Shown here: in pieces, positions 1-15,786 of the stretch
Numbering within the stretch: the stretch's first letter is position 1
Layout: each line of letters begins with the position of its first letter
DNA from: Acidobacteriota bacterium
GTDB taxonomy: Bacteria > Acidobacteriota > Thermoanaerobaculia > Gp7-AA8
Assembly: GCA_019244185.1 (NCBI GenBank)
Contig: JAFATB010000025.1
Location: forward strand, 1-64,000
Reading direction: 5' to 3'
DNA length: 64,000 nucleotides
Program-made: the position numbers and the translations under genes
The notes under the pieces: model-generated
The model's input: the letters and a program-made list of their open reading frames with translations, nothing else
Told to the model about the DNA's origin: nothing
The model's database searches: none

Positions 1-444
1 GCTGCCGTCGTACTCGTAGTTCCACTTCGTGAGCGCGACCGACGTCGGCGTGACCGGGCGTGGCGCCGGACTCGATTTCGTTTGCGGCGCGACGGGATCC
101 TGCAGCGCGACGGCATCCTCGGCGAGCGCTCCGACCCGCTGGACGAACGCCACGTGCGGATCGTGACGCAACTCCTCGAGACGCTCCGGCGGCAGATAGA
201 TGATCCGCAGATCGCGTTTCGATTCCACCAGCACGCCGCCCAAGCGCGCCAAGTCCGGCTCGCGATTGCCGGGTGCGGCGTTCGCGGGCGCCGCGGTGCC
301 CGCGCCTCGCAAAGCCAGCACGTAAATTCGCATTCCAGGCGGCGCATTCTGCGGGAGCGCGGCAAACGCGCGTCCGCTCATCAGCGCGACGAGCACGGCC
401 AGCAGCAGCAGCGCGAGTCGCGATTCCTTCGCCTTCGTCTTCAC
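1..444 (-). CDS. Partial (runs off window) secreted protein; signal peptide, I9-propeptide-like segment, then YD-repeat-like sequence; probable second part of a split RHS protein
   Basis: Not in ORF track; translated by hand. GTG at 444-442 overlaps the TGA (443-441) of the RHS gene. Open to base 1: MKTKAKESRLALLLLAVLVALMSGRAFAALPQ...ERLEELRHDPHVAFVQRV...TKWNYEYDGS. Confidence 0.75.
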   Translation of the reverse strand, partial: MKTKAKESRLALLLLAVLVALMSGRAFAALPQNAPPGMRIYVLALRGAGTAAPANAAPGNREPDLARLGGVLVESKRDLRIIYLPPERLEELRHDPHVAFVQRVGALAEDAVALQDPVAPQTKSSPAPRPVTPTSVALTKWNYEYDGS

Positions 445-3400
445 TGCACGCCTCCTCGCAGATCCGTCACGTGTACGGCGAGTACCGTTCCGCCCGCGAC
501 CGGCGGCACCGACGTATCCGTCATCGCCGGCAGCCCGAGCGCCGTCCGTGCCTCGGCCAGCGCATTCCGCAGATCCACCATGTGCGCTGCCGATACGTTC
601 ACCCCTGTCAGCGTCGCGGGGGTGAACGTCACCGCCGCCAGACCCGCCGCCGCGCGGACCGCGTTGATTGCGGTGCGCAACTGCAGGATGTGCTGCGCAC
701 GGATGATCGGCATCGGTGCTACGAGCGCGTCGTCGAACATCACCGTCGTTGCGACGTCCGGCGCGCTGGGCGGCGACGCGGTGCCGTTCTTGATCGCGCG
801 CACCCGATAGAGATAGGCACGCGACGACAACGCGGTCGTGTCGGAATACGTCAAACCGGTGGTGCTGCCGATCTTCACAAAGCCCGTGCTCGACGTGCAG
901 TTCACCGTACCCGAGCTGCAGCGTTCAATGTCGAACGAATCGGCGGCCGGAGCATAGCTCCACGACACGGCCACGACGCTGCTGCTCTGCGCCGTCGCCA
1001 CGGCGATCGGAACAGAGACCACGGTCACGCTCACCGCAACGCTATCAGCGTGCGTGTTCGAACAGCCGGTGTGCGACTGATTCGTCACCCGGACCCAGTA
1101 CCGCGTGGTCGTCGTGAGCACACCAGTAGAGAATGTGGCAACCTGCGTCTCCGCGGTCACCGGATTGGTGGTATCTCCCGACTCTCCTTTGTACCACCGG
1201 TACGTCAGAGCATCGCCCGTGGCAACGACCGAGAGCGTCGTCTGCTGATTCGTGTTGATGGTCTGCGGCGCCGGTTGGGTGACGATGCGGGGCAGACAGA
1301 TGTACACCGTTTGCGCCTGGCTATCGGCGTGACAGGTCGTACGCGTTCCGCGTACCCAGTACGAGGTAGTCGTCTTCGGCTGGACGAAGATCGTCGTGCC
1401 GCCGCCCACCGGACTGCTCGTATCCCCTCTTTGTCCGGCGTACCACGCGAACGTCTCCTCAGCGTCTGCGCCCGAAATCGACATCACCACACGATCTCCG
1501 CTGACACCGGTCCGTCCGGGGCTGATCGTGATCTCGTGCGCCGGGCAGACCGACACGGCCACCTGATTACTGTCCACCCACGCGTCGCCGCTCCAGACGC
1601 GTACCCAGTACACAGTGTCCGAGGTGACTGCAGGCGCGTAGGACGGTCCGTCGTTGTCACTGGTACTGACAGGATGCTGATCGTCGGTGCCCGTATACCA
1701 CTTGTATTTCAGGAACGAGCCGCTCGCGGCCACCGACAGCGGATAGGTGTCACCGCTCGTCACTGAACTGCCTACGGGCTGCGTCGTGATGAGAGGCCGG
1801 ATGCTGATCGTGGCCACCGCGCTGTCGACCGAACCGCAACCGTTTGCTACGCGGACCATGTATTTGGTCGTGATGAGGGGATCGATGAGCGTTGACGGAT
1901 CCGCCACGCTCCCGAGTTCGTGAAGCGATCCGTTCTGAAGCACCTCGAACCAGTCGTACGTCAGATCCGTCCCCAATGCGTCGACGCTCAGCCACCGCGG
2001 GAAGTGCGCGACGGTCGTGGTTGACGCCGGATTGAGCCGGATCTTCGGCATCGCACAAACGTTCACCGTCGCAGCGAGGTCGATCGAACACGACTTCGTC
2101 GTCACGCGTACCCAGAAGGCGGTCGTCGCGCTCACCGGCACCTGCAAGCGATTGCTCTGACCGGCATACGCGGCATACGGAGCGTATGCAGCGTCGCCCA
2201 CTGGCTGCGACGTATCGCCCGATTCGCCGACGTACCACTGGTAGCTCAGCGAATTCTGCGACGACGCGTTCACGACCAGATTGGTCACCGGCGAAGCCTG
2301 ATCCTGGTTCCAGGTCAGCGTCGCTGCCTGCGGCGCAGCCTGCACCGCAATGTCGTCGCACGAGATCACGTGCACGGTTGCGCGCACCGTATCCGTCGTG
2401 TCGCAGGCGTTGCTCAGCGTCGCCCAATACTGGGTCGTCCGCGTTGGCGTGACAGTCTTTGTTTTTTCGTGGCCGACGTTCTGCACCGGCTGGGCCTGGT
2501 ACCAATCAATGGTCGACGGCTGCGTCGATCCCGTTTCAAACGACAGCTGATACGCTTGACCGGCGTTCACTTCGGCCGATTTCGGCTGCGTGAGAATCTC
2601 GATCGGACTACAGGTGCCGGAGCCCGCGGCGGCCGTCACCGTCAGCGTCGGGCTGTCCGCGTATTTGCCGCACGGAGAAAACGCGCGAACCCAGAATGTG
2701 CCCGCGCCCACGCCGGGCGTCATTTGGCTCTGGGCGCCGAAATCAGGTTGCAGCGTCGAGATGCCGTTGAGCACTTCATGGTCGGTATTGCCGCTGTCGC
2801 CCATGTACCACTTGAACGTCACGCCATTCCAGGGACTGCTGGCGGTGAAGGTCTTATTGAGCGACGCCGGGACGATTGCCGTCTGATCCAGCGAGAGCAC
2901 CGGTTTCGGGCAGTCGTCTGCCGGGTAGATGAACGTCGCCAGTTCCACGACGCTCGATTTCGCGTTGGTACAGTTATGCCAGACGCGGAGACGTACAGTC
3001 CGCCCATCCCTCACGAAGCCCGTAAAGTTGCTCGCGGACGCGTCGTTCCTCGGCGGGAACACTGTGCCATCGACAGCCCACTCGAAGGTGTACTCGCCTT
3101 CGTGGCCTACGACGGGATTCGCCGTGACATAGAACGTGTCGTGTCCTGCCGGCATCCGAATCACGGGTGGGAATTTCACGTCGAAGTGCGCGGCGTCGGG
3201 AATCGTGCAGACCGGAGTGGTGGCCAGGGTGACGACCTTGACCAGCCGCGTCTGGGGCGCGCTGTCCGCGCAGATGCCCGAGACCTTGACGTATATTCCC
3301 CAGGTGCCGCTCTCATTCACCGCCGGCGTCCACGAGATCGATGGCGTCGTGCCACTGATGCTCACCGTTTGCACGTCGTCGTTGACCCAGTTCTGGCCGT

Positions 3401-6400
3401 TCCACGTCACCTTCTGCCGCCACCAGACATAGGAGACGCCTGTCGACTCTACGTCGACGCTGGCCGTCACCGCGGTCCCCGCCGCCACGGGATAGGCGAC
3501 CACGCGGTAATCGCTGTCGGGCACGACGATCTGCGGCGACTCACAGACGATCGCCTGGACGAGATTGGAGTCGATCACGCACCGGCCCGCGGTAACGCGA
3601 CACCAATAGGTGGTGGTGGAGGTAAGACCCGAGATGGTCAGCTGACTCCCGCCGTCCGCCGTCCGCGTGACGTACTGTGCGTTGACGGGCACGGCGTGGT
3701 CGCGGGTCCCCTCATACCACGTGTACTGCGCACCGCTCTCGCCCGATCTCGCGATAAACACGGCGTTCCCATCCGTCGCCAGCACGTCGACCGGTTGCAG
3801 TGCGATATCCGCGCAATGCGAGACGTTCTCGAACGAGAGCTCCTTCGGCCGGCCCATCCCCTCCTCCGGCACCTGCCGGTCGACGATGTCGTTCGCATGC
3901 GTCCGGCTGGTCCACAGCCCCTCGGGGCCATAGGCAATGTCATCGATGTATCCGGGAACGGTCTTCAAACGTCCCGCGTCGTGGGTAGCCGAAATGGCCA
4001 CGACGTCCGACATTCCGCAGACGCCTCCGGTGCATTCGGGGTAGGTGGTTTTCTTCACGAGGCCGAGGTCGTCGTAGTCGATGCTCTGGTCGAGCTTCGG
4101 CATGAGCGCCTCGCCGGTCGCCGCATCCGTGATTTCGGTCGTACGCGCGTTCGGACGGCCGCCGGCGTCGTAGCTATACGACTCCTTGACGACGATGGTC
4201 GATTGGTTGGACGCATCGTTGTAACGAGTGGCGGTATTCAGCCGGCCGTTGTTTGCGTCGAATTGAAAACTCTTCACGTCGGCGCCGGCAGTGACGGCGT
4301 CACAAGCACCGCTGCATCGCTTCACGTTGACGAGATGCTCCGCGGCGTCATAGGTATTGCGGACGTCGAACTCCGTTCCCGCCGCATCGCTCGAGAGCAC
4401 ATGACCGCGCGCGTCGTAGCGATAGCTGGTCGTGCCGCTCTCGGGATGGGTCTCCTGGGTCAGGAATCCTCGGTGGTCGTAGACGAATGTCCGTTGCTGC
4501 GGCGTCGCTCCCGCGGAGGGATACATCCTCACGCCCGACAAGCGGTTTCCGATGTCATAGTCATATTCCGTCCGGATTTCTCCCGCGGTCGCGGACGGCT
4601 TTTCGACGACTGCGCGGAGACGGCCGAAATTGTCGTATTCCTCGCGAACTTCCGCTTCCGTTTCGGCGCTGTTCGGCGTCGTATCGGTACGCACCGTCGA
4701 CTTGCGCTTGATGACACGCACGCCGAGGTAGGTCGTCGAATGGACGGCCTGATCGGGCGTCGTGACTGTCTGTGGCCGGCCGAAAGGATCGTACTCGTAG
4801 GTCGTGGAGAGGCCGGTCGCCGACGCGGACGCAACGGGAGCATGCGCATGGTGAAGGCGGCCCATCAGGTCGTAATCGGTCTTGCGATAACTCCACTGCC
4901 CATCGGGCATCAGCTCTTTTTGAACGGTGAGCCGCCCCAGACCATCGAAGGAATAGTGGACTTCACGAGACGACGGAGAAGTCCCCTGAGTCATGTCCAC
5001 CGCGGCCGGTGAGCTCGAGAGATCGTACGTGTAATGCAGGCAAGACTGCGCCGGCGCGCACACTTGCTTCAGCCGGCTGAGCGCGTCATACGCGTACGTG
5101 GTCACAAGGCCGGCGGTATCGCGGGAGGCGGAAGCAAGTCCGGTCGAGGCATCGATCGTCAGGTCGAGCGACTTGTACACCAGCGGCGCCGGAGTGGCAG
5201 ACGACACATTGACCCATTGCGAACTCGTAATCGAGCCGAAGGCGTACTGATGGCTCAGGCGAAACTCCGGCCGTTGCGGCAGCGGCATGGCCGCGAGCGA
5301 CGGGGCAAGATCAGCGTTCAGAGTTTGAACGTCGCCACCATAAAAGTCTTCATCAGTGACGTTGCCGGAGCTGTCGAAGGTATTGACCTTCAGGAGATCG
5401 TGTGCCCCGCGCGCGCCGCCTGCCCACGTGCGTTCGCGCCGAAGGGCGCCGGTTGCGGGATTGAAATCCGTTTCGACCGTCGCGGTATCGGTGACCGTCT
5501 GCGGATTGACCTCCCCGAGGACCGCGGACGCCGTGACCGTACGGCGAGGGTACGTGTTCAACAGCCACGCGGCTGCCGTCGACGGCATCGTGAAGGTCGT
5601 GGTGCTGGGCGCATTGGGGTCGACGATCGTGTAGGTGCCGGCGCCCAGGTTGTAGTCCGTCGTTTCCGTGCGTTGCTCGGAATGTGACGGCGCGGTATTG
5701 AACGAGCCGGTGATCGTTTGCTGACGATAGTGCCCGAGGCCATCGAAGGATGTCAGGTGCGTATCGATGTAGCTGCCGGACGGCGCGGCTTCCGTGTCGT
5801 CGGCGAACACGGTGCTCGTCGAGACGACGCGCTGATTGCGCTCGCGAAAGCAGCCGTCGTCGAAGGGATTACAGCCGCTCCATTGATCGTACTCGTAGCG
5901 GACGTACGATTTTCGCAGTACGTTTCCGCCGTAGAGGGTCTGACTGGAAAGAAACCGCCGCGTCGTGGGGTCGTTCGAGTCGGCGACTGCCCGGTTGTAC
6001 GGCAAAGCGTACTCCGCGGGGATCTGACCGTCGTCGTTGAAGTAATACTTGATCGTCGTCTGAGCGGGATCCGTGACGCTCGTGACACCAGCGGTGGGAT
6101 CGTCGACGCTATAGGTCCAGACGCCGAGCGACGTTCCGCCGGCGTCGACGAGCTCGCGCGTTTTCACGCCGGCCACCAATTCTCCACCGCCGGCAAAGGA
6201 CTGATAGGTCCACTTCAGCTTGCCCTTGGTCGGTAAGGTGAGGCTCATCAGCGCACCGGCATCTTCGTTGTCGAGCGGTGGCGCCGGCAGGTCCTCGCAG
6301 GGAGAGCCGGCGAACGTCGACATCGTCCATGACTGGTTCACGCCGTCGCCGGTCACCGTCAGCTTCTCGAGGATCGGCGCGTGCGTGTCGTCGGAGCTGT

Positions 6401-7283
6401 TCGGATGGTCGTCCGCACAGGGGCGTTGCAGCAAGGTTCCCGCGCTGGACGGCTCGCCCTCGTACGTGAATGCGTACGTGACGATGCCACCGTTGAAGCT
6501 CGTCAACTCGACGGATGAGACGACCGTATGCTTTGCGATCGTTTTGTAGTGGATTTCATGATGGCGATTGGCGGAATCGTCGAGCGTGGTCGTCATCCCG
6601 TCATAGCCGACCGTCAAGGCGTTATTGAAGCGATCGTTGATCGCGGTCAGCCGGCCCAGCGTGTCGAACGATTGAATCGTTCCATCCGCGAACTCGAGAG
6701 TGGCCGTGTTCGACGTCGGCATTTCGTGAAGCCGGAGGTACATGCCGTCACGCGAATAATAGTAATTCGGCACGGAAGCCTCGCCGTCGTGCAAGGTCGG
6801 ATAGAGCGTATGCAGGCTGCCGTCGGGCGCCTCATAGATCCAGTGGGCGGTCAGGTATGCGTTGGGCGTGGACGGCTGCAGCCGCCCCAGCGACAGATTC
6901 CATCCGACGCCGGCGCTGCGGACGATCAGCCGGGCGACGGTGTGGCAGGCGGTCGGATCCAGCGCCGGCTCGACATACAGCGGATCATCACCGTCTTCGC
7001 GGTCGATGCCGTCCGTGATCGAGCACATCTCCTTGTAGCGCCACGGACTGCCGCTGTAGATCAACTTCAGGCCGTACGAAAGGCCGCCACCAACCCTGTA
7101 GCTCTGCCCGATCGGCAATTCCGCCAGAAGATTGCCGGAAAAGAAATTGACATGATCGATGTCGCCCATCGCCAGCACGCGATCCGGCGCAAAGCCCGAC
7201 TCGCGCATCGGATACTCCTGCGCGAGGAGCGCGCGCGCGGCGAGAAGGGCGGCCAATGCTGCGACGAAAAGACTCCGCCTCAC
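441..7283 (-). CDS. Large secreted RHS/YD-repeat protein with C-terminal Ig-like repeats, FN3 domain and helical His-repeat tail
   Basis: 2280 aa; signal peptide (MRRSLFVAALAALLAARALLA); N-terminal DHVNFFSGNL motif; many YD repeats (YAYDALSRL, YEYDPFGRP, YRYDARGHV); ~10 repeats of ITxQP...YxWYxGxSGDT...TTxYWVRV; FN3-like VSWS...YLYRVRA. Confidence 0.9.
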   Translation of the reverse strand: MRRSLFVAALAALLAARALLAQEYPMRESGFAPDRVLAMGDIDHVNFFSGNLLAELPIGQSYRVGGGLSYGLKLIYSGSPWRYKEMCSITDGIDREDGDDPLYVEPALDPTACHTVARLIVRSAGVGWNLSLGRLQPSTPNAYLTAHWIYEAPDGSLHTLYPTLHDGEASVPNYYYSRDGMYLRLHEMPTSNTATLEFADGTIQSFDTLGRLTAINDRFNNALTVGYDGMTTTLDDSANRHHEIHYKTIAKHTVVSSVELTSFNGGIVTYAFTYEGEPSSAGTLLQRPCADDHPNSSDDTHAPILEKLTVTGDGVNQSWTMSTFAGSPCEDLPAPPLDNEDAGALMSLTLPTKGKLKWTYQSFAGGGELVAGVKTRELVDAGGTSLGVWTYSVDDPTAGVTSVTDPAQTTIKYYFNDDGQIPAEYALPYNRAVADSNDPTTRRFLSSQTLYGGNVLRKSYVRYEYDQWSGCNPFDDGCFRERNQRVVSTSTVFADDTEAAPSGSYIDTHLTSFDGLGHYRQQTITGSFNTAPSHSEQRTETTDYNLGAGTYTIVDPNAPSTTTFTMPSTAAAWLLNTYPRRTVTASAVLGEVNPQTVTDTATVETDFNPATGALRRERTWAGGARGAHDLLKVNTFDSSGNVTDEDFYGGDVQTLNADLAPSLAAMPLPQRPEFRLSHQYAFGSITSSQWVNVSSATPAPLVYKSLDLTIDASTGLASASRDTAGLVTTYAYDALSRLKQVCAPAQSCLHYTYDLSSSPAAVDMTQGTSPSSREVHYSFDGLGRLTVQKELMPDGQWSYRKTDYDLMGRLHHAHAPVASASATGLSTTYEYDPFGRPQTVTTPDQAVHSTTYLGVRVIKRKSTVRTDTTPNSAETEAEVREEYDNFGRLRAVVEKPSATAGEIRTEYDYDIGNRLSGVRMYPSAGATPQQRTFVYDHRGFLTQETHPESGTTSYRYDARGHVLSSDAAGTEFDVRNTYDAAEHLVNVKRCSGACDAVTAGADVKSFQFDANNGRLNTATRYNDASNQSTIVVKESYSYDAGGRPNARTTEITDAATGEALMPKLDQSIDYDDLGLVKKTTYPECTGGVCGMSDVVAISATHDAGRLKTVPGYIDDIAYGPEGLWTSRTHANDIVDRQVPEEGMGRPKELSFENVSHCADIALQPVDVLATDGNAVFIARSGESGAQYTWYEGTRDHAVPVNAQYVTRTADGGSQLTISGLTSTTTYWCRVTAGRCVIDSNLVQAIVCESPQIVVPDSDYRVVAYPVAAGTAVTASVDVESTGVSYVWWRQKVTWNGQNWVNDDVQTVSISGTTPSISWTPAVNESGTWGIYVKVSGICADSAPQTRLVKVVTLATTPVCTIPDAAHFDVKFPPVIRMPAGHDTFYVTANPVVGHEGEYTFEWAVDGTVFPPRNDASASNFTGFVRDGRTVRLRVWHNCTNAKSSVVELATFIYPADDCPKPVLSLDQTAIVPASLNKTFTASSPWNGVTFKWYMGDSGNTDHEVLNGISTLQPDFGAQSQMTPGVGAGTFWVRAFSPCGKYADSPTLTVTAAAGSGTCSPIEILTQPKSAEVNAGQAYQLSFETGSTQPSTIDWYQAQPVQNVGHEKTKTVTPTRTTQYWATLSNACDTTDTVRATVHVISCDDIAVQAAPQAATLTWNQDQASPVTNLVVNASSQNSLSYQWYVGESGDTSQPVGDAAYAPYAAYAGQSNRLQVPVSATTAFWVRVTTKSCSIDLAATVNVCAMPKIRLNPASTTTVAHFPRWLSVDALGTDLTYDWFEVLQNGSLHELGSVADPSTLIDPLITTKYMVRVANGCGSVDSAVATISIRPLITTQPVGSSVTSGDTYPLSVAASGSFLKYKWYTGTDDQHPVSTSDNDGPSYAPAVTSDTVYWVRVWSGDAWVDSNQVAVSVCPAHEITISPGRTGVSGDRVVMSISGADAEETFAWYAGQRGDTSSPVGGGTTIFVQPKTTTSYWVRGTRTTCHADSQAQTVYICLPRIVTQPAPQTINTNQQTTLSVVATGDALTYRWYKGESGDTTNPVTAETQVATFSTGVLTTTTRYWVRVTNQSHTGCSNTHADSVAVSVTVVSVPIAVATAQSSSVVAVSWSYAPAADSFDIERCSSGTVNCTSSTGFVKIGSTTGLTYSDTTALSSRAYLYRVRAIKNGTASPPSAPDVATTVMFDDALVAPMPIIRAQHILQLRTAINAVRAAAGLAAVTFTPATLTGVNVSAAHMVDLRNALAEARTALGLPAMTDTSVPPVAGGTVLAVHVTDLRGGVQ

Positions 7284-7981
7284 TGGTTGCCTCCCACACG
7301 CACGACGGCATAGTCGAGCGTATCGGTGTTCACCGCGATCACGACGTCGCCCGTTTGCAGCGCCGTCAAGGCCGGCGTCGCGCCGGTCACCGCCTCCATT
7401 GCGCTGACACTGACCGCTCCTTCCGCTTCCTCGCGACGCAGTCGGCGCCAGGTGCCGACGCCCGGCCGGACGACGATGAAATCGAGCTCATCACCTTCTG
7501 CATCGAGTTGCACCGCCGCCGCCGCGGCACTGAGCGTCGTGCTCAGTTGCGGAAATGAACGCTCGTATCCAACGCGGGCAACAGGCTCAGATGGCACCCG
7601 CACGCCCCAGTCCCCATGCGTCAGATCGACGGCAATGGTCAGCGACTGGTTCGGCGGAGTGTGCAGGACGGTCTGCGACGGATTTTCGATTGGCCGCGGC
7701 TGCACCAGCGACACGGGATCGAAGATGTAGACGATGCCGTCCTGATTGACGTCGGTGCGGCGACAGAAGCGCATCCTGCTCTGCCACACCATGCGGCCGG
7801 CATTCAGTTCGCCGCGGACGTCCGGCACGATGACGTAGGAAACGGCGACGACGGAATCGCCGGGAGGCAGATTTCCGACGGCCAGACGGCTGCCGTCGGC
7901 GTCGATCGTCAGCGTTGCCGCGGCGTGAAGCGACAGCGGCAATGCCAGCAGAATGAGGACAGTAAGAGTGCGAATGCGCAA
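7280..7981 (-). CDS. Secreted hypothetical protein, accessory to RHS gene
   Basis: 233 aa; signal peptide ending LHA-A; TTG start with GGGAG upstream; stop overlaps the GTG of the RHS gene (GTGA). Confidence 0.75.
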   Translation of the reverse strand: MRIRTLTVLILLALPLSLHAAATLTIDADGSRLAVGNLPPGDSVVAVSYVIVPDVRGELNAGRMVWQSRMRFCRRTDVNQDGIVYIFDPVSLVQPRPIENPSQTVLHTPPNQSLTIAVDLTHGDWGVRVPSEPVARVGYERSFPQLSTTLSAAAAAVQLDAEGDELDFIVVRPGVGTWRRLRREEAEGAVSVSAMEAVTGATPALTALQTGDVVIAVNTDTLDYAVVRVGGNQ

Positions 7982-8070: not shown

Positions 8071-9669
8071 TTACTGCAGCGACAACAGCACGAGAATCTC
8101 GCCGGTGCCCGACGCCAGCGGCTCGAGTGCTTTGCCGACGATGGTGCCGGGCTGGTGAAAGGCGCGGCCTCCGACTTCGATCGGGATCGATTTCATGGCC
8201 GTGCCGGCGACGTCGCTGCTGACCAGCAGGTCGCCGACTTCGATCGGAGCGCGGCGGGCATCCACTTTGACGCGCACGCGGCCGGTGGTTGCGATCATTT
8301 CCTTCGTCGCGCCGGCCTCGCCGAGGACGACGCCGGGGTGCGCGGAGACGACGCCGGCGACGGCCGTGTCATAGGCGTGCGACGACGCGGCGACTTCATT
8401 GACGCGACCGCGCGCCAGCACCACGACGGTACCGACCTCGAGGTCGGCGGCGGCGGGAACCCATTCGGCGACGTCCTGGTATTTCGCGGCGATGTTTCCG
8501 GTGATGTCCACCGAGCCGTTGACCTTGAGGCGGGTCGCCGTTTCGGCGGCATTGTCGCCGATGGTCGTGAGACCGCTCACGTACATGTCGGCGCGGGTCT
8601 GGGAGACGCCGGTCGAGTTCGTGGCCGCTTTGACCCAGAACGTCTCCTTGTTCTCGACCGCCGACAAGCCGCGGAAGTAGTACTTGTCGTAGTTGGGGAA
8701 CGTCGGGTTGAAGTGATAGTAGATCTGCGAGTCGAAGTTGATGTCTTTCTGCGTGTAATAGCCGAGCGTGAACGCCTGGAATTTCGTCGTCGCGGGCGAG
8801 CCGACCTCGTCGTCGGAACGCGCGTTGTAGAACGTCACGCGATTGTTGTTCGTCCCGGCGCTGTCGCGCGGATTCACGATCCGCACCTCGTGCACGACGT
8901 TCCCGCTGATGGAGGACGATTCGTGGTACGAGGTCCGTCCGCTGAAGTAGTTCGTGCCGCGCAGACGGGTGTCGCCATTGGAGCCGACGCGGAGCAGTTC
9001 GTTCTGATTGCTGTCATACACTGCAAAGCCGCCGGTGCCGGCGGAATCGCCAGCCTTCAGGATGGTCCACGGAGTGGCGGCTCTCGCCACACCGACGAAA
9101 CCTGCGCTCGACCACGGGCTGGCCGCATCGAGGAACAGATCGCCGGCGGTTCCGGACGTCGTGACGTTGGTCTGCGGCGCACCCGGACGCAACGGCACGA
9201 CGGCGGCCTGCATTTTCTGCGCGGACGTCGTCGCGCCCGTCGTCGTCTCATCGGTCGGGTCGACCACGGTACCGGGGCGGACGTAATAGCCTTCAATGTC
9301 GACGGCGACGTTCTCCGTCATCGCGACGGGAAACGACGCCACCGCTCCTGCCGGAAAGCGCACCAGCGGGCCGGGCGTGCCCGGCGTGGGTGCGACATGC
9401 GGAATAGCGCGCGTCATGGACGTCACGCGGACCGCGTACGCGATCGCACTGGCGGGCACCAGACGGCCGCAGCGCGTCGACGCGATGTTGAGGCGGCGTG
9501 TGGTTTCATCCGACGAACTATCGGGCGCATCGACGCGCGTATCGACCAGGCGGCACGGCGCGATCGCAACGAAGCGGTCGGAGGCGGCACTGGCCGTTTC
9601 CTGTGCAAACGAGTTCAATGCAACGGCACAGACGGCCGTCAGAAGCAGCGCTTTCGGCTTCATGGACAT
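8071..9669 (-). CDS. Secreted protein with N-terminal PCRLVDTR module and C-terminal peptidase G2/intramolecular-chaperone-like domain
   Basis: Start moved to ATG 9669 (MSMKPKALLLTAVCAVALNSFA, GGGGA upstream); FVAIAPCRLVDTR; C-terminal AKYQDVAEW...GTVVVL...VAGVVS...GRVRVKVD...GDLLVSS...GTIVGKALE. Confidence 0.75.
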   Translation of the reverse strand: MSMKPKALLLTAVCAVALNSFAQETASAASDRFVAIAPCRLVDTRVDAPDSSSDETTRRLNIASTRCGRLVPASAIAYAVRVTSMTRAIPHVAPTPGTPGPLVRFPAGAVASFPVAMTENVAVDIEGYYVRPGTVVDPTDETTTGATTSAQKMQAAVVPLRPGAPQTNVTTSGTAGDLFLDAASPWSSAGFVGVARAATPWTILKAGDSAGTGGFAVYDSNQNELLRVGSNGDTRLRGTNYFSGRTSYHESSSISGNVVHEVRIVNPRDSAGTNNNRVTFYNARSDDEVGSPATTKFQAFTLGYYTQKDINFDSQIYYHFNPTFPNYDKYYFRGLSAVENKETFWVKAATNSTGVSQTRADMYVSGLTTIGDNAAETATRLKVNGSVDITGNIAAKYQDVAEWVPAAADLEVGTVVVLARGRVNEVAASSHAYDTAVAGVVSAHPGVVLGEAGATKEMIATTGRVRVKVDARRAPIEVGDLLVSSDVAGTAMKSIPIEVGGRAFHQPGTIVGKALEPLASGTGEILVLLSLQ

Positions 9670-9799
9670 GAGTTCCCCACAGGCCGTCGCGAGACGGCGC
9701 ATCTCTCGAGCAAATTTTCGTTGTCTTGTCGGAGCGGACCTGACGGCGGAGATGATACAGGGAACTACAAGAGCGAGCAATAACTTTTTCAGAATTTCG

Positions 9800-12340
9800 T
9801 CATTTCATCAGAATTCCGCGCACGCTTCCCGACACGAGTGCGGCGATGTCCGTGAGGATGAGCGGGAGGCGGAGGCCGCCGGGGCTGGCGAGGAAAATCG
9901 GTTCCCAGACGGGGTCGAATTTCTGTTTGTACTGGCGCAGGCCCTGGAAATTGTAGAAGTGGCCTCCGTGCTCGAAGCCTAACGCTGCGACGCGGCTCCA
10001 CAATGGGCCTTGTGCGCGCGCTTCGAGTCCACTGAGCGGGGCCATGCCGAGGTTGAACCAGCGGTAATTCAGCGACTGCGCGTGCAGGATGAGATTGACG
10101 AAGAGGAAATCCATGACGCCGCTCGGTGCGGCAGTGGAATGTCGCATGAGATCGACGGTCAATTCTTCGTGCACATCGTCGCCCCATAGATTCGCGAATG
10201 CGACGAGCTCCTCGCGATAGCGAATCAATGCAACCGGCAGGCGTTGCATGTAGGCGTCGTCGAAAAAGCCGAGCGAGAAACGTTTCTCGCGCGTATTGCG
10301 CGTCGACAGCCAGTCGTTCGACACGCGGCGCAATTCGGGAAGCATGGCGCTCGCAGCTTCGGCGGAAATCACCTCGAAGGTCGTGCCTTCGGTCTCGAGA
10401 CGCTTCACGGTATGACGCAGGCTTTTGCGATCGCGTCCGGCGAGCGTGAAGCCCGCGGTCGCGACGCGCGCTTCTTCGCCGAGCTTCATGAGGCGCAAGC
10501 CCAATTCGATATAGAGCGGCAGAAGCGGCGTGCGCACCTGATAGAAGACCGGCCAGCCATTGTGGCGGTCGGCTTCCTCGAAAAAGCGCCACGCGAGCTC
10601 GTGCGCATCCGCGGGCGGGCCGATCGGATCGCCCATGGCCACCCAACTGCGGCGCTGTACGCCGTACATAAGAAATGCGCTGCGCGGCTCATTGAAGAGC
10701 AGCGACTTGTCATTGAGCAGCACGAGATAGCCGGCCGGCGCGCAGCGGCCGCGCGCGATCTCGGTCGCGCGGTCGAGCTCCTGCGACACGACGGGCGGCG
10801 GTGGCGCGACGGCGGGATGCAGCAGCTTGCGCGCGGAGAACGCCAACGCGACCGCGGCCGCGGCGAGACTCGCGCGCAAGAAGCGCGGCGCGTCGCCGCT
10901 GAAGCTGAAGTGCCACCAGAGCTCCGGCGAATACGCAATGCGGCGGTACGCGAAGAAGCCGAGCCACATCGTCGACAGCACCGTGAGCCCGATCGCGGTC
11001 GCCCACCCCGGCGTGAACGGCTCGTCGAGCAACGCGGTCTTGCGATAGAAGTGGCGGCGGCACGGCACGATCGCGACGACGGTGATGCCGAGGAGGCACG
11101 CCTCTTCCCAATCGAGGCCCTTGAGTAACGACGCCATCATGCCGGCGACGAGCAACGTCACCGACAACGCATATGCGCCGTTCAAGCGCCGCTGCAGTCC
11201 GCGCGCGAGCAACAGCAGTCCCGCGCCGGCCATGCTGCCGACGAGATGCGCGACTTCGACGAGCGGCAGCGGCACCGCGGCTTTCAGCGCGTAGACGCGG
11301 TCGCGTTCCGCGGGCGTCGCGCCCGAGATCAGCAGAATCACGCCGTCGATGAAGATCGCGACGGAGAAGACGCTCGGCACGAACAGCGACACGGTGCGCG
11401 CGAGGCCGCGGCCGAACGCGCTCAGCTGCGTGCGCCGCCGCAGCACTTCCTGCGCGCCGAGAAGGGCGCCGGCGACGAAGAGCGGCAGGACGTAATAGAG
11501 CGCGCGATACGCGACGAGCGCGCCGGCGAGCGTGCCCGCGCCGAGGGCGGGGCCGAGGAGGGAGAACACCGCGGCCTCGAACACGCCGACGCCACCGGGA
11601 ACGTTGCTGACGACGCCGAGGACTTGCGCGGCGAGGAAGACCGCGAGCGTCGTCGCGAACGAAACGCGCGACTGCGGCAGCAGCGCGTAGAACACGAGCG
11701 CGGCGCAGAACCAGTCGGCGATCGACAGTGCGAACTGCAACGCCGCGAGGCGCGTGTGCGGCACGGCGAAGCGTCCGATCTCTTTCCGCCTCGACAGTAC
11801 GAGCGCGGCGTAGATGACCGGCAGAATCAGCAGCACCGGGCCGAGCCACGGCACGACCCGCAGCCGGTGCAGCGTCAGCACGCTGCCGGCGAGACTCAGG
11901 AAGCCGAGCCAGAACGTGGCGACGCTGAACGCGATCACGCGCGCGGCGTCCGCACCGCTGAGCCCCCACGACGTGTACAGCCGATAGCGCAGCGAGCCGC
12001 CGGCGATGCCGGAGAGTCCGACGGTGTTGCTGACCGCGGCGGAGACGAACGACGCGAACGCCGTCTTGCGCAGCGGCAGATCGTGGCCGCCGTAGTGCGC
12101 GCCGAGGGCGTCGTAGCCGGCGAGCGCGAGATAGCTGGCGGCGGTCGCGGCGAGCGCGAGCGCGACCTGCGACGGCACGAGGCGCCCGATGTACGCCGCA
12201 ACCTCGTGCAGGTGAAAGTGCCGCAGCTCGCTGAAGATCACGCGCAGCGCGATGAGGAACAGCGCCGCGCGCGCGACCGGCCACGCGTAGCGCGCGAGCT
12301 GCAGCGAGACGCGCCGCTCCGTATCCGACAGCGCAGTCAT
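9800..12340 (-). CDS. mprF: Bifunctional lysyl-phosphatidylglycerol flippase/synthetase MprF (LpiA)
   Basis: 846 aa; polytopic N-terminal domain (VPGGVGVFE, YRALYY); synthetase motifs MGDPIG, KLGEEA, VDLMRH, NLGMAPL, FYNFQGLRQYKQKFDPVWEP. Confidence 0.95.
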   Translation of the reverse strand: MTALSDTERRVSLQLARYAWPVARAALFLIALRVIFSELRHFHLHEVAAYIGRLVPSQVALALAATAASYLALAGYDALGAHYGGHDLPLRKTAFASFVSAAVSNTVGLSGIAGGSLRYRLYTSWGLSGADAARVIAFSVATFWLGFLSLAGSVLTLHRLRVVPWLGPVLLILPVIYAALVLSRRKEIGRFAVPHTRLAALQFALSIADWFCAALVFYALLPQSRVSFATTLAVFLAAQVLGVVSNVPGGVGVFEAAVFSLLGPALGAGTLAGALVAYRALYYVLPLFVAGALLGAQEVLRRRTQLSAFGRGLARTVSLFVPSVFSVAIFIDGVILLISGATPAERDRVYALKAAVPLPLVEVAHLVGSMAGAGLLLLARGLQRRLNGAYALSVTLLVAGMMASLLKGLDWEEACLLGITVVAIVPCRRHFYRKTALLDEPFTPGWATAIGLTVLSTMWLGFFAYRRIAYSPELWWHFSFSGDAPRFLRASLAAAAVALAFSARKLLHPAVAPPPPVVSQELDRATEIARGRCAPAGYLVLLNDKSLLFNEPRSAFLMYGVQRRSWVAMGDPIGPPADAHELAWRFFEEADRHNGWPVFYQVRTPLLPLYIELGLRLMKLGEEARVATAGFTLAGRDRKSLRHTVKRLETEGTTFEVISAEAASAMLPELRRVSNDWLSTRNTREKRFSLGFFDDAYMQRLPVALIRYREELVAFANLWGDDVHEELTVDLMRHSTAAPSGVMDFLFVNLILHAQSLNYRWFNLGMAPLSGLEARAQGPLWSRVAALGFEHGGHFYNFQGLRQYKQKFDPVWEPIFLASPGGLRLPLILTDIAALVSGSVRGILMK

Positions 12341-12984
12341 GGCGCGGGCAACGCGTCGAGGATCGCGCGCGCGATCGCGCGGTACGCGCCTCCGAAGTGA
12401 TGTCCGCCCGGCGTGCGGATCGACGCCGCCTCATCCGGCGGCAGGGTGGGACAGAGGCTCACCTCCCCTTCCTCGGCGCCGTGAAAGCAGAGCAGGCGCA
12501 CGCCGCGGCTCGCATGCACGAGCGGCGCGAGCAGCACTTCCGGCGGCGCGGGATCGAGGCCGAAGAGCCACCAGCGCCGCACGCGCAGCTCGGCCGTTTT
12601 CTCGGGTCCGAGCATCGCCGCGAGCGCGATCTTCGCGCGCGCCTCCGGCGTCATCTGCGACAGCGCGATCGGCACCGCCTCCGCGCCGCGCGAGTAGCCG
12701 ATGACGACCGGCTTGGCCTTCCGCCACTTCGCTCCGTACGCCGCGATCACCGACTGCACATCGCGCGCGACTTCCTCCGGCGTCCGCTCGGTTTCGAAGT
12801 AGCGGTTCGACAGAAAGCCGACGACCGGGATGCCGTGCGCGTTGATCTCGCGCGCGAGCTCGATGTCGATCTTCCGCCAGCCGCCGTCGCCGGTGAGCAG
12901 CACGACAAAATACGGCGTCGCCGTCGGCGTCACCGGCTTTTCGATGAGGGGCAGATGGATGGCGAAGAGGAGCGCCGCGATCAC
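12337..12984 (-). CDS. AcvB/VirJ-family lysyl-PG hydrolase (single alpha/beta-hydrolase domain)
   Basis: TGDGGW, GYSRGA nucleophile elbow, GGHHFGG; coupled to mprF (ATGA). Confidence 0.85.
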   Translation of the reverse strand: MIAALLFAIHLPLIEKPVTPTATPYFVVLLTGDGGWRKIDIELAREINAHGIPVVGFLSNRYFETERTPEEVARDVQSVIAAYGAKWRKAKPVVIGYSRGAEAVPIALSQMTPEARAKIALAAMLGPEKTAELRVRRWWLFGLDPAPPEVLLAPLVHASRGVRLLCFHGAEEGEVSLCPTLPPDEAASIRTPGGHHFGGAYRAIARAILDALPAP

Positions 12985-13658
12985 TTCAGCTCCTCGAGGA
13001 TCCGCGCCGCGATCGCGTCGTACTTGCCGTCGAAGTGATGTCCGCCATGCAAGGTCAGATCACGCGCGATGGTGCCGTCGAGTTGCGTGCAGAGGCTGTC
13101 CGTCTCGGCGTCGCCGTGCACGCAGAGCACGCGCATGCCGCGTAACTTGCGCGCTTCCGGCAGCGTCGGAAGGCCGTGCGGATCGCGGAGCCAGTCGGCC
13201 ATGTGAAACTGAAACGTCGCCTCGGTGCTCGGCGCGAGCATCGCCACGAGGCGGATGTTGCGGCGCGCGTCCGCGCTCATGCGCGGCACCGCGAACGGCA
13301 GCGCGTCGGCGCCGCGCGAGTAGCCGATCAGCACGACCTGCTCGCGTCCCCATTTCGCGCGATACGCGGCGATGACGCGCGCGAGATCGTTCGCGATCTC
13401 GTCGGGCTTCCGTTCGTGCCAGAAGTACTGCAGCGAGTTGATGCCGACCACCGGGATGCCGCGCGCGGCGAGCGCGTTCGCGATGGATTTATCGATGGCC
13501 GCCCAGCCGCCGTCACCGGAGATCAGGACTGCCATCACGGGGGCGGGCGCGCCGTGCGCCGCCACTTCGACGAGCGGCAGATCGTTGAGGACGGTTGTGG
13601 ACAGGAGGACCAGGAACGCTACAGTAGACACCGGCGGCGATTCTCGTCCGTCCAACAT
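12981..13658 (-). CDS. AcvB/VirJ-family lysyl-PG hydrolase (second paralogue)
   Basis: SGDGGW, SLQYFW, GYSRGAD, GGHHFDGKY; true start may be GTG at 13631. Confidence 0.85.
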   Translation of the reverse strand: MLDGRESPPVSTVAFLVLLSTTVLNDLPLVEVAAHGAPAPVMAVLISGDGGWAAIDKSIANALAARGIPVVGINSLQYFWHERKPDEIANDLARVIAAYRAKWGREQVVLIGYSRGADALPFAVPRMSADARRNIRLVAMLAPSTEATFQFHMADWLRDPHGLPTLPEARKLRGMRVLCVHGDAETDSLCTQLDGTIARDLTLHGGHHFDGKYDAIAARILEELK

Positions 13659-13672
13659 GACGCGGAGATGAA

Positions 13673-14347
13673 ATGCGGGCGCTGATCGTGGAAGACGACG
13701 AACGGTTGCGCAACATCGTGCGCCGCTCGCTCACGCGCCTCAACCTCGCGTGCGACGAAGCGGGCTCGCTCGAGGAAGCGGACGAGCTCACCGGACTGCA
13801 CGAGTACGACGTGATCGTCCTCGACCGCCGCCTCCCCGACGGCGACGGCATCGCGCTCTGCCGCGCGCTGCGCACGCGCGGCTTCGGCAACGGCATCCTC
13901 ATGCTCACCGCGCTCGACGACGCGCGCTCGACCGTCGACGGGCTCGAACAAGGCGCCGACGATTACCTCGGCAAGCCGTTCGACGTCGAGGTGCTCGAAG
14001 CGCGCGTGAAAGCCTTGTTGCGGCGCAACGAGCGGCGTCCGACCACGGCTCTCGTCTCCGGCCATCTCAAGCTCGATCCCGCGCGGCACACGCTCGAACG
14101 CGAAGGCGTGCCGATCTCGCTCACCGCGCGCGAGCTGCGTCTGCTCGAAACGCTCATGCGCGCGCCGGGCGCGATCGTCGGACGCGAGGATCTGATGGAG
14201 CAGGCGTGGGGCGAGCGCGAGGAGCCGATGAGCAACACGATCGACGTGCACATCGCGCGGCTTCGTCGCAAGCTCGAAGCGGCCGGCGAACGCGACGCGA
14301 TCGAGACCGTGCGCGGCGTCGGATATCGCATGCGAGGCGGCGCGTGA
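13673..14347 (+). CDS. OmpR/PhoB-family response regulator
   Basis: LIVEDD, LDRRLPDGDG, GADDYLGKPF, winged-helix ETVRGVGY. Confidence 0.95.
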   Translation: MRALIVEDDERLRNIVRRSLTRLNLACDEAGSLEEADELTGLHEYDVIVLDRRLPDGDGIALCRALRTRGFGNGILMLTALDDARSTVDGLEQGADDYLGKPFDVEVLEARVKALLRRNERRPTTALVSGHLKLDPARHTLEREGVPISLTARELRLLETLMRAPGAIVGREDLMEQAWGEREEPMSNTIDVHIARLRRKLEAAGERDAIETVRGVGYRMRGGA

Positions 14348-15786
14348 TGCGCCCGCGCGACCGCAAGGCCCGCACGCGCATCGTCGTCACCGGCACGCTG
14401 GCGACGTTCGCCGTGCTGGCCGCGTTCGCGATCGCGGCGCGCATCGCCACGCGCGTGCTCATGCTGGCCGACCTCGACGACGAGCTCGAAACGCTCTCCA
14501 TCGCCATCGCCTCCGATCTCGAGCTGCGCGGCACGGCGACCGTCGCGCACGAGTCACTGCGGCACGGCGTCGAGACGAACGCGTTCGTCTACCGCCTCGA
14601 ACATCACGCGGCCGTGCTCTTCGACGCGCATGGCGTCCTCGCCGCGACGGGCGAGCTGGGACACCTCGCGCGTCATTCGAATCTCCTCGAGTTTCAGCGC
14701 CGCGACGAACAGCCGTTCACGGGGCGCGAGCCGTTCACCGGACAGCAGCGGCTCTGCCGCTTCCGCGTCACGCACCTGCGCGAGCACGCCGCGGGCGCGA
14801 CGCTGCTCATCTTCCGGTCGATCGAGACGATCTCGCGCACGCTGGATATCGTCGACGGCGCGCTCGCGCTGCTCGTCTTCGGCGGCTCGCTCGCGTCGGC
14901 GCTCATTCTGCGTTACGCCGTCGGCCGCGCGCTGCTGCCGGTCGAACAGGTGACGGCGTTCGCCGAGCGGATCACCGCCAGCGACCTCGCGCAGCGCGTG
15001 GAGGTCGCGGCGGCGGGCGAAGAGTTCCAGCGTTTGGCGGACGTCATCAACTCACTGCTCGAACGCCTCGATCGCTCGTTCGACGCGCAGCGGCGGCTCG
15101 TCGCCGATGCCGCGCACGAGCTCAAGACGCCCGCGGCGGTGATCGCGGCGGAAGCGCAGGAGCTCGCGCGCGGTCGGCTCTCGGAAGACGAGTCGCAGGA
15201 GAGCCTGCGCATGATCGCGCGCGCGGCGGCGGGACTCGCGCACGAGGTCGACGATCTGCTCGAGCTCGCGCGCGGCGATGCGGCGCAGCGGCGGCAGTGG
15301 GAGACGTTCGACGTCGACGAGGCGCTCGACGAATCGGTGGCCATGGCCGTGTCGCCCGCGCGCGAGCGCGGCGTGATCATCATGCGCGACGGCCGCGCCG
15401 CGTGCCGCGTGCACGGCGATCGCGCGGGCTTCGTCCGCGCGATCGGCAACCTCGTCGCGAATGCCGTGCGCTACGGCCCGCGCGACAGCGAAGTGCGCGC
15501 CACGGCGCGCGTCACCGAACACGCGTGTGAGATCGACGTCGCCGATCGCGGACCGGGAATCCCGGAGGCGGAGCGCGCGCGCATCTTCGAACGCTTCGTC
15601 CGCCTCAGCTCCGCGCGGAAGGAGCATCCCGAAGGCGCGGGCCTCGGACTGGCGATCGTCGAGCAGATCGTGCAGGCGCACGGCGGCGCGATCGAGGTGC
15701 TCGACCGCGAAGGAGGCGGCGCGCTCTTCCGCGTGCGCTTTCCGCGCGCCGCCACCGAACCTCCGCAGGAACCGGTTGTCGCTTAG
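14347..15786 (+). CDS. HAMP-domain sensor histidine kinase
   Basis: Real start ATG 14347 (TGATG overlap); two TM segments, HAMP, H-box DAAHELKTP, N-box NLVANAVRY, DRGPGI, GAGLGL. Confidence 0.92.
   Translation: MRPRDRKARTRIVVTGTLATFAVLAAFAIAARIATRVLMLADLDDELETLSIAIASDLELRGTATVAHESLRHGVETNAFVYRLEHHAAVLFDAHGVLAATGELGHLARHSNLLEFQRRDEQPFTGREPFTGQQRLCRFRVTHLREHAAGATLLIFRSIETISRTLDIVDGALALLVFGGSLASALILRYAVGRALLPVEQVTAFAERITASDLAQRVEVAAAGEEFQRLADVINSLLERLDRSFDAQRRLVADAAHELKTPAAVIAAEAQELARGRLSEDESQESLRMIARAAAGLAHEVDDLLELARGDAAQRRQWETFDVDEALDESVAMAVSPARERGVIIMRDGRAACRVHGDRAGFVRAIGNLVANAVRYGPRDSEVRATARVTEHACEIDVADRGPGIPEAERARIFERFVRLSSARKEHPEGAGLGLAIVEQIVQAHGGAIEVLDREGGGALFRVRFPRAATEPPQEPVVA

Follow-up and report, generated by a model that had tools for sequence, protein, structure and literature searches.

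RHS cocoons carry very different toxins, and the cocoons of Tc toxins are being engineered as protein carriers. In single-chain Rhs effectors such as RhsA of P. protegens, Tse5, Tse15 and RhsP, which have a link to type VI secretion (T6SS), one chain makes up the whole cocoon. In RhsA the cleavage point follows residue 1323, and the cocoon is sealed by a conserved region at the C-terminus (PMC8765631; this and the other papers cited here were available as partial texts, to which the statements drawn from them are limited). In the TcB-TcC pair (Photorhabdus TcdB2-TccC3, Yersinia YenB-YenC), two separately encoded chains form one YD cocoon, and the TcC chain contributes a core autoprotease and a hypervariable toxin that is kept inside (PMC8765631). 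One TcB chain accepts several TcC chains (PMC11067744). TcB/TcC is so far the sole example of a natural cocoon built from two chains in the literature that we searched; no split RHS protein outside the Tc family was found there, including the partial texts of PMC13018210, PMC7861908, PMC3482391 and PMC8765631, with subscription journals lying outside the coverage. Here we analyze a 64,000-nucleotide stretch of DNA from a soil Acidobacteriota bacterium (positions 1 to 64,000 of contig JAFATB010000025.1, assembly GCA_019244185.1), referred to below as the window. At one end of it, the gene for a 2280-residue protein with an open YD shell overlaps the start of a small gene, and we propose, with a probability of roughly 75%, that the locus encodes a two-chain RHS toxin cocoon. 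An initial annotation of the window had set such a split against a canon of one-chain RHS toxins. In view of TcB/TcC that contrast falls away: a two-chain RHS cocoon is already known, and the proposed one here differs in the position of its cut.

The large protein and the small-gene family

The elements of the two genes are as follows, in window coordinates.

441..7283, minus strand: large gene, open reading frame (ORF) of 2280 residues
7218..7283, minus strand: putative signal peptide of the large protein, about residues 1-22, VRRSLFVAALAALLAARALLAQ
3825..7202, minus strand: open YD/RHS shell, residues 28-1153, including an SpvB-like N-terminal part at residues 44-314
3831..3860, minus strand: break point GMGRPKELSF, residues 1142-1151, the last conserved shell motif (GMxRPxxI), followed by immunoglobulin (Ig)-like repeats
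1014..3824, minus strand: stalk of about 10 Ig-like repeats, residues 1154-2090 (Pfam Ig_7)
444..1013, minus strand: FN3 and a conserved C-terminal domain of ~90 residues without known family, residues 2091-2280 (alignment A6)
441..444, minus strand: GTGA stop/start overlap, with GGAGG 8 nt upstream
1..444, minus strand: second ORF (small gene), 148 residues, open-ended at window base 1
361..444, minus strand: putative signal peptide of the small protein, residues 1-28, cut between AFA and A; a helix in the orthologue model
109..360, minus strand: N-domain of the small protein (~85 residues), topology taken from the orthologue model
1..108, minus strand: linker of the small protein with its first YD strand (WNYEYDGS), ending at the contig end

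The large protein begins with a typical Sec leader, whose hydrophobic stretch is conserved in the homologue consensus (alignment A4) and which the model shows as a low-pLDDT helix. In its place neither a PAAR nor a VgrG-type N-terminus was seen, by Pfam scan or in the sequence. The RHS/YD repeats are recognized by PF05593 (E 6.7e-25) and TIGR01643 (E 1.6e-11). The homology to RHS shells ends at GMGRPKELSF. Ig_7 then matches three stretches of the stalk (E 2.4e-29), which contains nine Y/FxWY/F motifs and six of the YWVRV type. In the tail alignment, fn3 matches 6 of the 11 members and CAP-like hits are weak. The RHS-associated core (TIGR03696) is missing from the 2280-residue protein at E <= 0.01, and a home-made core hidden Markov model (HMM) found no core in P0026, the database call of the large protein. 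These results confirm the initial annotation, which had described a signal peptide, ~1100 residues of RHS/YD sequence, Ig repeats from GMGRPKELSF onward and no RHS core; the YD shell measures ~1150 residues.

The junction reads GGAGG-N8-GTGA, in which the TGA stop of the large gene (441-443) overlaps the GTG start of the small gene (442-444). The small protein starts with K/R, a hydrophobic stretch and AFA. Its N-domain has the topology beta-alpha-beta-beta-alpha-beta (pLDDT 63-89 in the orthologue model) and is conserved in 14 sequences. As a lead only, the Atlas suggests that this domain may resemble a subtilase prodomain or inhibitor I9 (CspB_prodomain 0.91, Inhibitor_I9 0.89). The initial annotation had seen a GTGA-coupled gene with a signal peptide and a YD-like WNYEYDGS at its edge, and in an alignment with 13 homologues these residues fall exactly on their first YD repeat (WGPKxYxYDGSGNIK). 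Window base 1 is also base 1 of the contig (contig C2, of which the window is bases 1-64000, in an assembly of 26 contigs, 5.3 Mb and 98.9% completeness). The truncation of the small gene at residue 148 is therefore an assembly break and has no biological meaning.

Complete versions of the small gene are found in related genomes. In a sample of 60 genomes, 11 carried homologues of the small protein (P0002), all in the same genus (11/34), and 12 stretches were taken from 10 of them, the eleventh (G021) holding a weak 177-residue match. The split recurs in these 10 related genomes: in every one, a small gene of 602-651 residues starts -4 to +22 nt after a coreless-shell gene with the same tail. 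Twelve small proteins are uncut and fall within that size range, and a 13th, cut, has 187 residues. They share one architecture, consisting of a signal peptide, the N-domain, ~190 residues of YD repeats, an RHS core, PxxxxDPxG and a hypervariable toxin. In the family alignment the core reads RHxHxDHLGS...YMHARYYDPxxGRFLSxDP...PxxxxDPxG and is followed by unalignable tips. The further YD repeats and the core looked for in the downstream gene family are present. TIGR03696 was found in 14 of 16 aligned small proteins, the two misses being sequences cut by contig ends, including the window's own; TIGR01643 was found in 12 of the 16, and PF05593 is listed for 10 of 10, nine of them above its cut-off. 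P443, D448, G451, D418 and D400 are invariant in all 30 small proteins compared, and PxxxxDPxG with the conserved aspartates forms the predicted cleavage site of the small chain.

Beyond DPxG the alignment collapses into tips of ~130-200 residues. One type matches HNH (E 2.5e-11), and there are weak GIY-YIG-like and M91 metallopeptidase-like hits. Of the 11 small genes examined (loci L034-L043), 10 are followed by an ORF of 90-155 residues whose start lies at -26 to +9 nt; behind the eleventh (L036), the ORFs at +1/+8 measure 422 and 193 residues. The ORFs directly behind the small genes are likely to be immunity proteins. They are mutually unrelated. A leader or lipobox is present where the tip is HExxH-type (metallopeptidase-like) and absent where it is HNH or GIY-YIG-like.

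Three full-length near-orthologues of the window's copy, P0021, P0022 and P0024 (620-651 residues), are 82-83% identical to its visible 148 residues and have the whole architecture. Searched among 5.8 billion proteins, the N-domain profile returned 23 proteins of 416-651 residues, named in their sources as RHS repeat-associated core proteins of Thermoanaerobaculia or Acidobacteriota. In a phylum sample, with nine candidates scored per genome, it was found in 3 of 401 genomes including the window's (G000), all in the window's family.

P0021 was also mapped onto the genome of the window. Its residues 1-145 fall on C2:1-444. Its residues 367-452 match the right end of contig C11 with 76% identity, and the strand is the one on which the small gene would run on. 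The middle of P0021, a gap of ~221 residues between C2 and C11 by the orthologue, has no counterpart in the assembly. The C11 end scores 62.6 bits as an RHS core fragment of the small protein's subfamily, in fitting orientation. The initial annotation had placed the closing shell, core and payload in the second chain; this was found in the orthologues and at the C11 end, and not in the window itself. Among public run contigs, a 729-nt piece covers bases 1-179 and reaches 550 nt past base 1, and at 150-179 there is a branch to a contig of 1673 nt, the 30-nt flank of which the assembly does not contain. Since the run contigs branch there, contig C2 appears to have broken within a repeat common to two small-gene copies, and a second copy probably exists in the organism of the window. 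The run contig with bases 1-179 and the 550 nt beyond has a depth ~1.5 times that of its neighbours.

At the C11 contig end (146439-147259, locus L007), a frameshift or a sequencing error seems to carry the toxin tip over into another, overlapping frame. The tip has no match in Pfam in either frame, and the PHROG and PDB searches gave nothing either. RHS toxins abound in the window genome: contigs C2, C6, C7, C11 and C26 hold eight or more other loci whose RHS core scores above the cut-off, including a 7325-residue open frame on C6 and an SpvB-domain RHS protein of 2113 residues on C7.

Tiling, mutual exclusion and structure models

The same genome encodes a single-chain RHS paralogue of 1820 residues, with its core at 1531-1647. 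Residues 1-1159 of the large protein (P0001) align to its residues 18-1321, and the YD and core part of all five small proteins tested aligns to 1333/1334-1646/1647. Aligned to single-chain homologues in this way, the two chains tile with almost no gap. Closer single-chain relatives give a similarly tight fit for the large plus the small protein: 3-1113 plus 1122-1411 on P0029 (1581 residues), 19-1145 plus 1119-1455 on P0039, and 26-1153 plus 1149-1464 on P0030. On P0027 and P0031, the single alignment segment shown covers the core only. In the single-chain relatives GMxRPxxI leads on to WxxGxYxYDGxGN; the linker between them could be measured in 18 and has 10-18 residues in 16. In the split-type relatives, Ig repeats come after the motif. 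The strict break-point motif is present in only 21 of 64 single-chain sequences.

The two endings also exclude each other. The shell has 7251 homologues, 1184 of them at E <= 1e-30, and the best 150 were sorted with the home-made core HMM (28/30 positive controls recovered) and a tail HMM. Among these 150, 64 have the core only, 63 the stalk tail only and none both; the remaining 23, which have neither, are fragments or long Ig tails. The 63 stalk-tail homologues form 63 clusters at 50% identity.

Some large genes end differently. The large gene of L036 (G007; 5159-7573) ends in Ig repeats without the FN3/C-terminal domain, and a small gene still follows. Six of the 23 homologues with neither ending, of 2693-3191 residues, likewise end in Ig repeats without that domain. 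Such genes are a second subtype of the split form. An idea that the C-terminal domain of the large protein docks the N-domain of the small one is weakened by the G007 gene, which lacks that domain.

The split does not look like decay. In an IQ-TREE tree of 43 shells (every third labelled tip, the window's protein and the C26 outgroup), two changes between split and single-chain forms suffice, and none of 500 shuffles scored as low. A single origin of the split form is compatible with this tree. Recurrent fission, with at least six switches in a FastTree of 142 shells, was dropped because the IQ-TREE of 43 rows needs only two. The branches of the shell tree are long (median 0.72). Since split and single-chain shells cluster on the tree and the branches are long, the split form is an old and diversified lineage.

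A model of the shell (residues 1-1160, 51-row alignment) reached a pLDDT of 85.1 and a pTM of 0.83. All its strong structure matches in the PDB are YD shells, among them the following (rmsd, root-mean-square deviation).

RhsA, 7q97: Z 21.6, rmsd 3.2, 759 residues aligned, model 43-1149, chain 302-1126
Tse15, 8uxt: Z 16.3, rmsd 6.0, 751 residues aligned, model 41-1160, chain 333-1164
TcdB2-TccC3 fusion, 4o9x: Z 13.7, rmsd 3.6, 939 residues aligned, model 27-1158, chain 48-1829

Model residues 44-314 match the SpvB N-domain (Z 10.8). Whole TcB chains (4igl_C, 6l7i_F and 5kis_A) align to model residues 27-863/876 only. By sequence, the shell gave no PDB hits, and P0021 gave two RhsP entries, at a repeat offset. 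No shell closed by the 2280-residue protein itself was found: the model ends at RhsA residue 1126, with cleavage after 1323, and at Tse15 residue 1164, with the catalytic aspartates at 1369 and 1391 (PDB entry title). Its end thus falls ~200-300 residues short of the catalytic and cleavage sites of solved RHS proteins. Because the model stops before these sites, the large protein is predicted to lack the last part of the wall and the plug.

An orthologous small protein folded alone gave a pLDDT of 51.4, with the N-domain and YD hairpins confident and the core at ~30; this model was too poor and was left out of the fold search. In co-folds of large-protein residues 520-1160 with residues 125-470 of P0021, a stand-in partner, run on our own alignments, ipSAE was 0.90, 0.91 and 0.90, against 0.00 for the best of three controls. 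Of 80 solved complexes, 58 attain the mark applied, as do 2 of 110 mismatched pairs. The runs share at least 88% of their contacts, with a partner pLDDT of at least 82. Large-chain residues 1145-1153 contact small-chain residues 132-147, as a strand-to-strand continuation at the break, and the turn of the small chain packs on large-chain residues 844-1135. A strand-to-strand interface between the two chains is predicted by these models.

Proposed mechanism and alternative readings

Combining these results, we propose the following mechanism. Chain 1 (2280 residues) would be exported by Sec, provide about four fifths of the YD shell and stop at GMxRPxxI. From its edge, a stalk of about 10 Ig-like repeats, FN3 and the small C-terminal domain would point outward. 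Chain 2, translated by GTGA coupling and carrying its own signal peptide and prodomain-like N-domain, would bring the missing last ~190 residues of YD hairpins, and its RHS core would spiral inward as plug and aspartyl autoprotease (PxxxxDPxG), followed by a toxin of ~130-200 residues. The first strand or hairpin of chain 2 may zip onto the last strand of chain 1, which is a free edge. The core would then close the shell, and the cleaved tip would be retained inside. Alternative small genes could load one scaffold, each with its own downstream immunity-like ORF. The stalk and the adjacent fibre-like protein, the latter an Atlas lead only, may serve display or targeting. The nuclease and peptidase tips and the immunity-like ORFs make interbacterial antagonism, with neighbouring bacteria as the target, the most likely function.

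The cocoon as two separately exported chains, as the initial annotation had proposed, is supported by tiling, synteny and the exclusion of core and tail; its physical assembly is predicted only. The payload swapping proposed with it fits the small genes found in tandem, which have the same sequence as far as the core but unlike tips. Loci with two small genes are L039 (G013; 9524-14211), L040 (G028), L043 (G030) and one on G128:C33. In G013 the tandem copies are identical from leader to core and have different tips, and a 77-residue remnant of the C-terminal domain of the large gene precedes the second copy. This remnant suggests a duplication of a unit made up of the 3' end of the large gene and the small gene.

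A further step is more tentative, and we hold it at somewhat less than even odds: both halves may cross the inner membrane unfolded by Sec, with assembly, closure and loading of the cocoon all taking place outside the cytoplasm, and one scaffold may be charged combinatorially with alternative small chains. If true, the locus would encode a plug-and-play RHS capsule of natural origin, put together by another route than the cytoplasmic TcB/TcC.

Several points weigh against the two-chain cocoon. The window's own small gene is visible to residue 148 only, and its continuation is drawn from orthologues and from a physically unlinked contig end. The core fragment on C11 may belong to the second small-gene copy, since bases 1-179 are a repeat whose second flank is missing from the assembly. 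In one database gene call (P0026), the large protein begins at Met26 and lacks the leader. G028 and G030 hold second copies of the small gene that stand alone, with no large gene next to them. The co-fold partner comes from another metagenome, and likeness to solved single-chain RHS proteins and to TcB/TcC may explain why the co-fold passed; such likeness is no proof of binding. No route across the outer membrane and no target has been identified.

The alternative that survives best is that the two proteins are functionally independent, the large one using its open YD scaffold as a surface adhesin or a receptor of the teneurin kind and the small one being a self-sufficient mini-RHS toxin that only happens to lie in the same operon. 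The solo small genes in G028 and G030 and the separate signal peptides would suit it, as would the large protein of G007, which shows that there is no universal dedicated docking domain. However, ~190 residues of YD hairpins and a core cannot enclose a tip of 130-200 residues, and the core region of the orthologue is modelled alone at a pLDDT of only ~30. Independence would also leave aside the near-gapless tiling, the core and stalk tail that never occur together in 150 homologues, the tight coupling of the genes in 10 genomes, and co-fold scores of 0.90 against 0.00 for controls. We consider this reading unlikely.

It is still less probable, and in our judgment quite improbable, that the small genes are orphan toxin cassettes for recombination into single-chain rhs genes and are not expressed as partners. 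Orphan C-terminal cassettes are classical at rhs loci (PMC7043789), and the tandem G013 copies with different tips, the second behind its 77-residue remnant, resemble them. Against this, each small gene has its own start codon, Shine-Dalgarno-like site, signal peptide and conserved N-domain. The small proteins are only 41-42% identical to the single-chain paralogues of the window genome, too low for homologous recombination, and the coupled large gene has no exchangeable core. A single-chain rhs gene that was broken by pseudogenisation or misassembled into a chimeric contig would fit a contig that ends inside the small gene within a repeat and the C11 tip in two overlapping frames, but it is the least probable reading of all, given the same architecture in 10 genomes and 63 clusters at 50% identity with long branches, ~1100 residues of ordered Ig, FN3 and C-terminal domains in frame past the break, and contigs from three runs, possibly of the source samples, that cover window bases 1-1500 with at most one difference.

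If the locus does encode a two-chain cocoon, it would be a second natural split with a different seam, widespread in one acidobacterial lineage (63 clusters among the best 150 homologues). It would show where the shell tolerates interruption, and it suggests encapsulation after export. The small protein would offer an exchangeable 'lid plus cargo' module of ~620 residues. For the Sec-dependent RHS toxins of diderm soil bacteria, the Ig stalk and the fibre-like neighbour gene may point to an as yet unexplored route of delivery.

Two genes lie upstream in the operon.

8071..9780, minus strand: gene A, secreted protein of 569 residues, with its C-terminal ~170 residues strongly conserved
7280..7981, minus strand: gene B, 233 residues, signal peptide; GTGA overlap of its stop codon with the GTG of the large gene

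The C-terminal part of gene A is 57-70% identical in the loci of seven relatives, adjoining the module where mapped, and in an eighth locus (L040) the identity is 41% over 381 residues. Gene A has no Pfam, PHROG or PDB sequence match. As a lead only, it may be a fibre with an intramolecular-chaperone-like end (Atlas, Peptidase_G2/IMC-like phage tail fibre ends, score 0.94). Gene B is weakly conserved (26-34% identity), lies directly upstream of the large gene in four loci, and has no family match in the Pfam, PHROG and PDB searches. Further along, 9800-13658 (minus strand) encodes an MprF-like lysyl-phosphatidylglycerol synthase of 846 residues, then two VirJ-family genes, and a histidine kinase lies at 13750-15786 (plus strand). 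No T6SS or TcA signature was found at the locus.

Comparison with known systems

The single-chain RHS relatives of the same bacterial family are the nearest comparison. P0029 and the paralogue on C26 share 33-35% identity in the shell, the same leader and the same GMxRPxxI. Past this motif they continue in one chain with a linker of 10-18 residues, YxYDGxGN, the core and the toxin. In the split type, a stalk, a stop, a signal peptide and the N-domain are inserted at GMxRPxxI by comparison.

The T6SS-linked single-chain effectors RhsA, Tse5, Tse15 and RhsP share the shell fold with the large protein (Z 20-24). Their C-terminal core with PxxxxDPxG corresponds to that of the small chain, and a polymorphic tip with an immunity-like neighbour is also shared. 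Unlike their whole cocoon in one chain, the large protein here stops ~200 residues before the cleavage site.

The YD shell is also shared with bacterial teneurin-like proteins (TLPs; PDB 9ifo_A, Z 18.2, model 40-1155) and with metazoan teneurins (Z 16.5-17.8). Teneurin-type proteins have extracellular domains of the Ig/FN type, are exported and are thought to be surface exposed (PMC13018210). A TLP combines the shell with an FN-plug and an NHL domain in a single chain, whereas in the large protein only the YD shell aligns. A Pfam scan found no NHL in the large protein; the TLP domains were not searched one by one. The partial text of PMC13018210 describes no split form among the teneurin-like proteins.

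TcB/TcC remains the closest precedent for the division into two chains. No beta-propeller family was found in the large protein by Pfam, and 665-679 of the ~1450 TcB residues align. PF18276 (TcA_TcB_BD) had no match in the window genome, and the control likewise matched in no genome. The small chain, at 602-651 residues, is shorter than TcC, which has 851-1050 residues in 97.2% of TcC proteins (PMC7861908), and its tips of ~130-200 residues are shorter than the hypervariable region of TcC, at 201-400 residues (PMC7861908). The hosts are Acidobacteriota here and Proteobacteria or Firmicutes for Tc. In contrast to Tc, both chains here have Sec leaders, and an Ig stalk stands at the seam. The cut itself lies elsewhere: TcB corresponds to model residues 27-876, and the large protein runs on to about residue 350 of TccC3.

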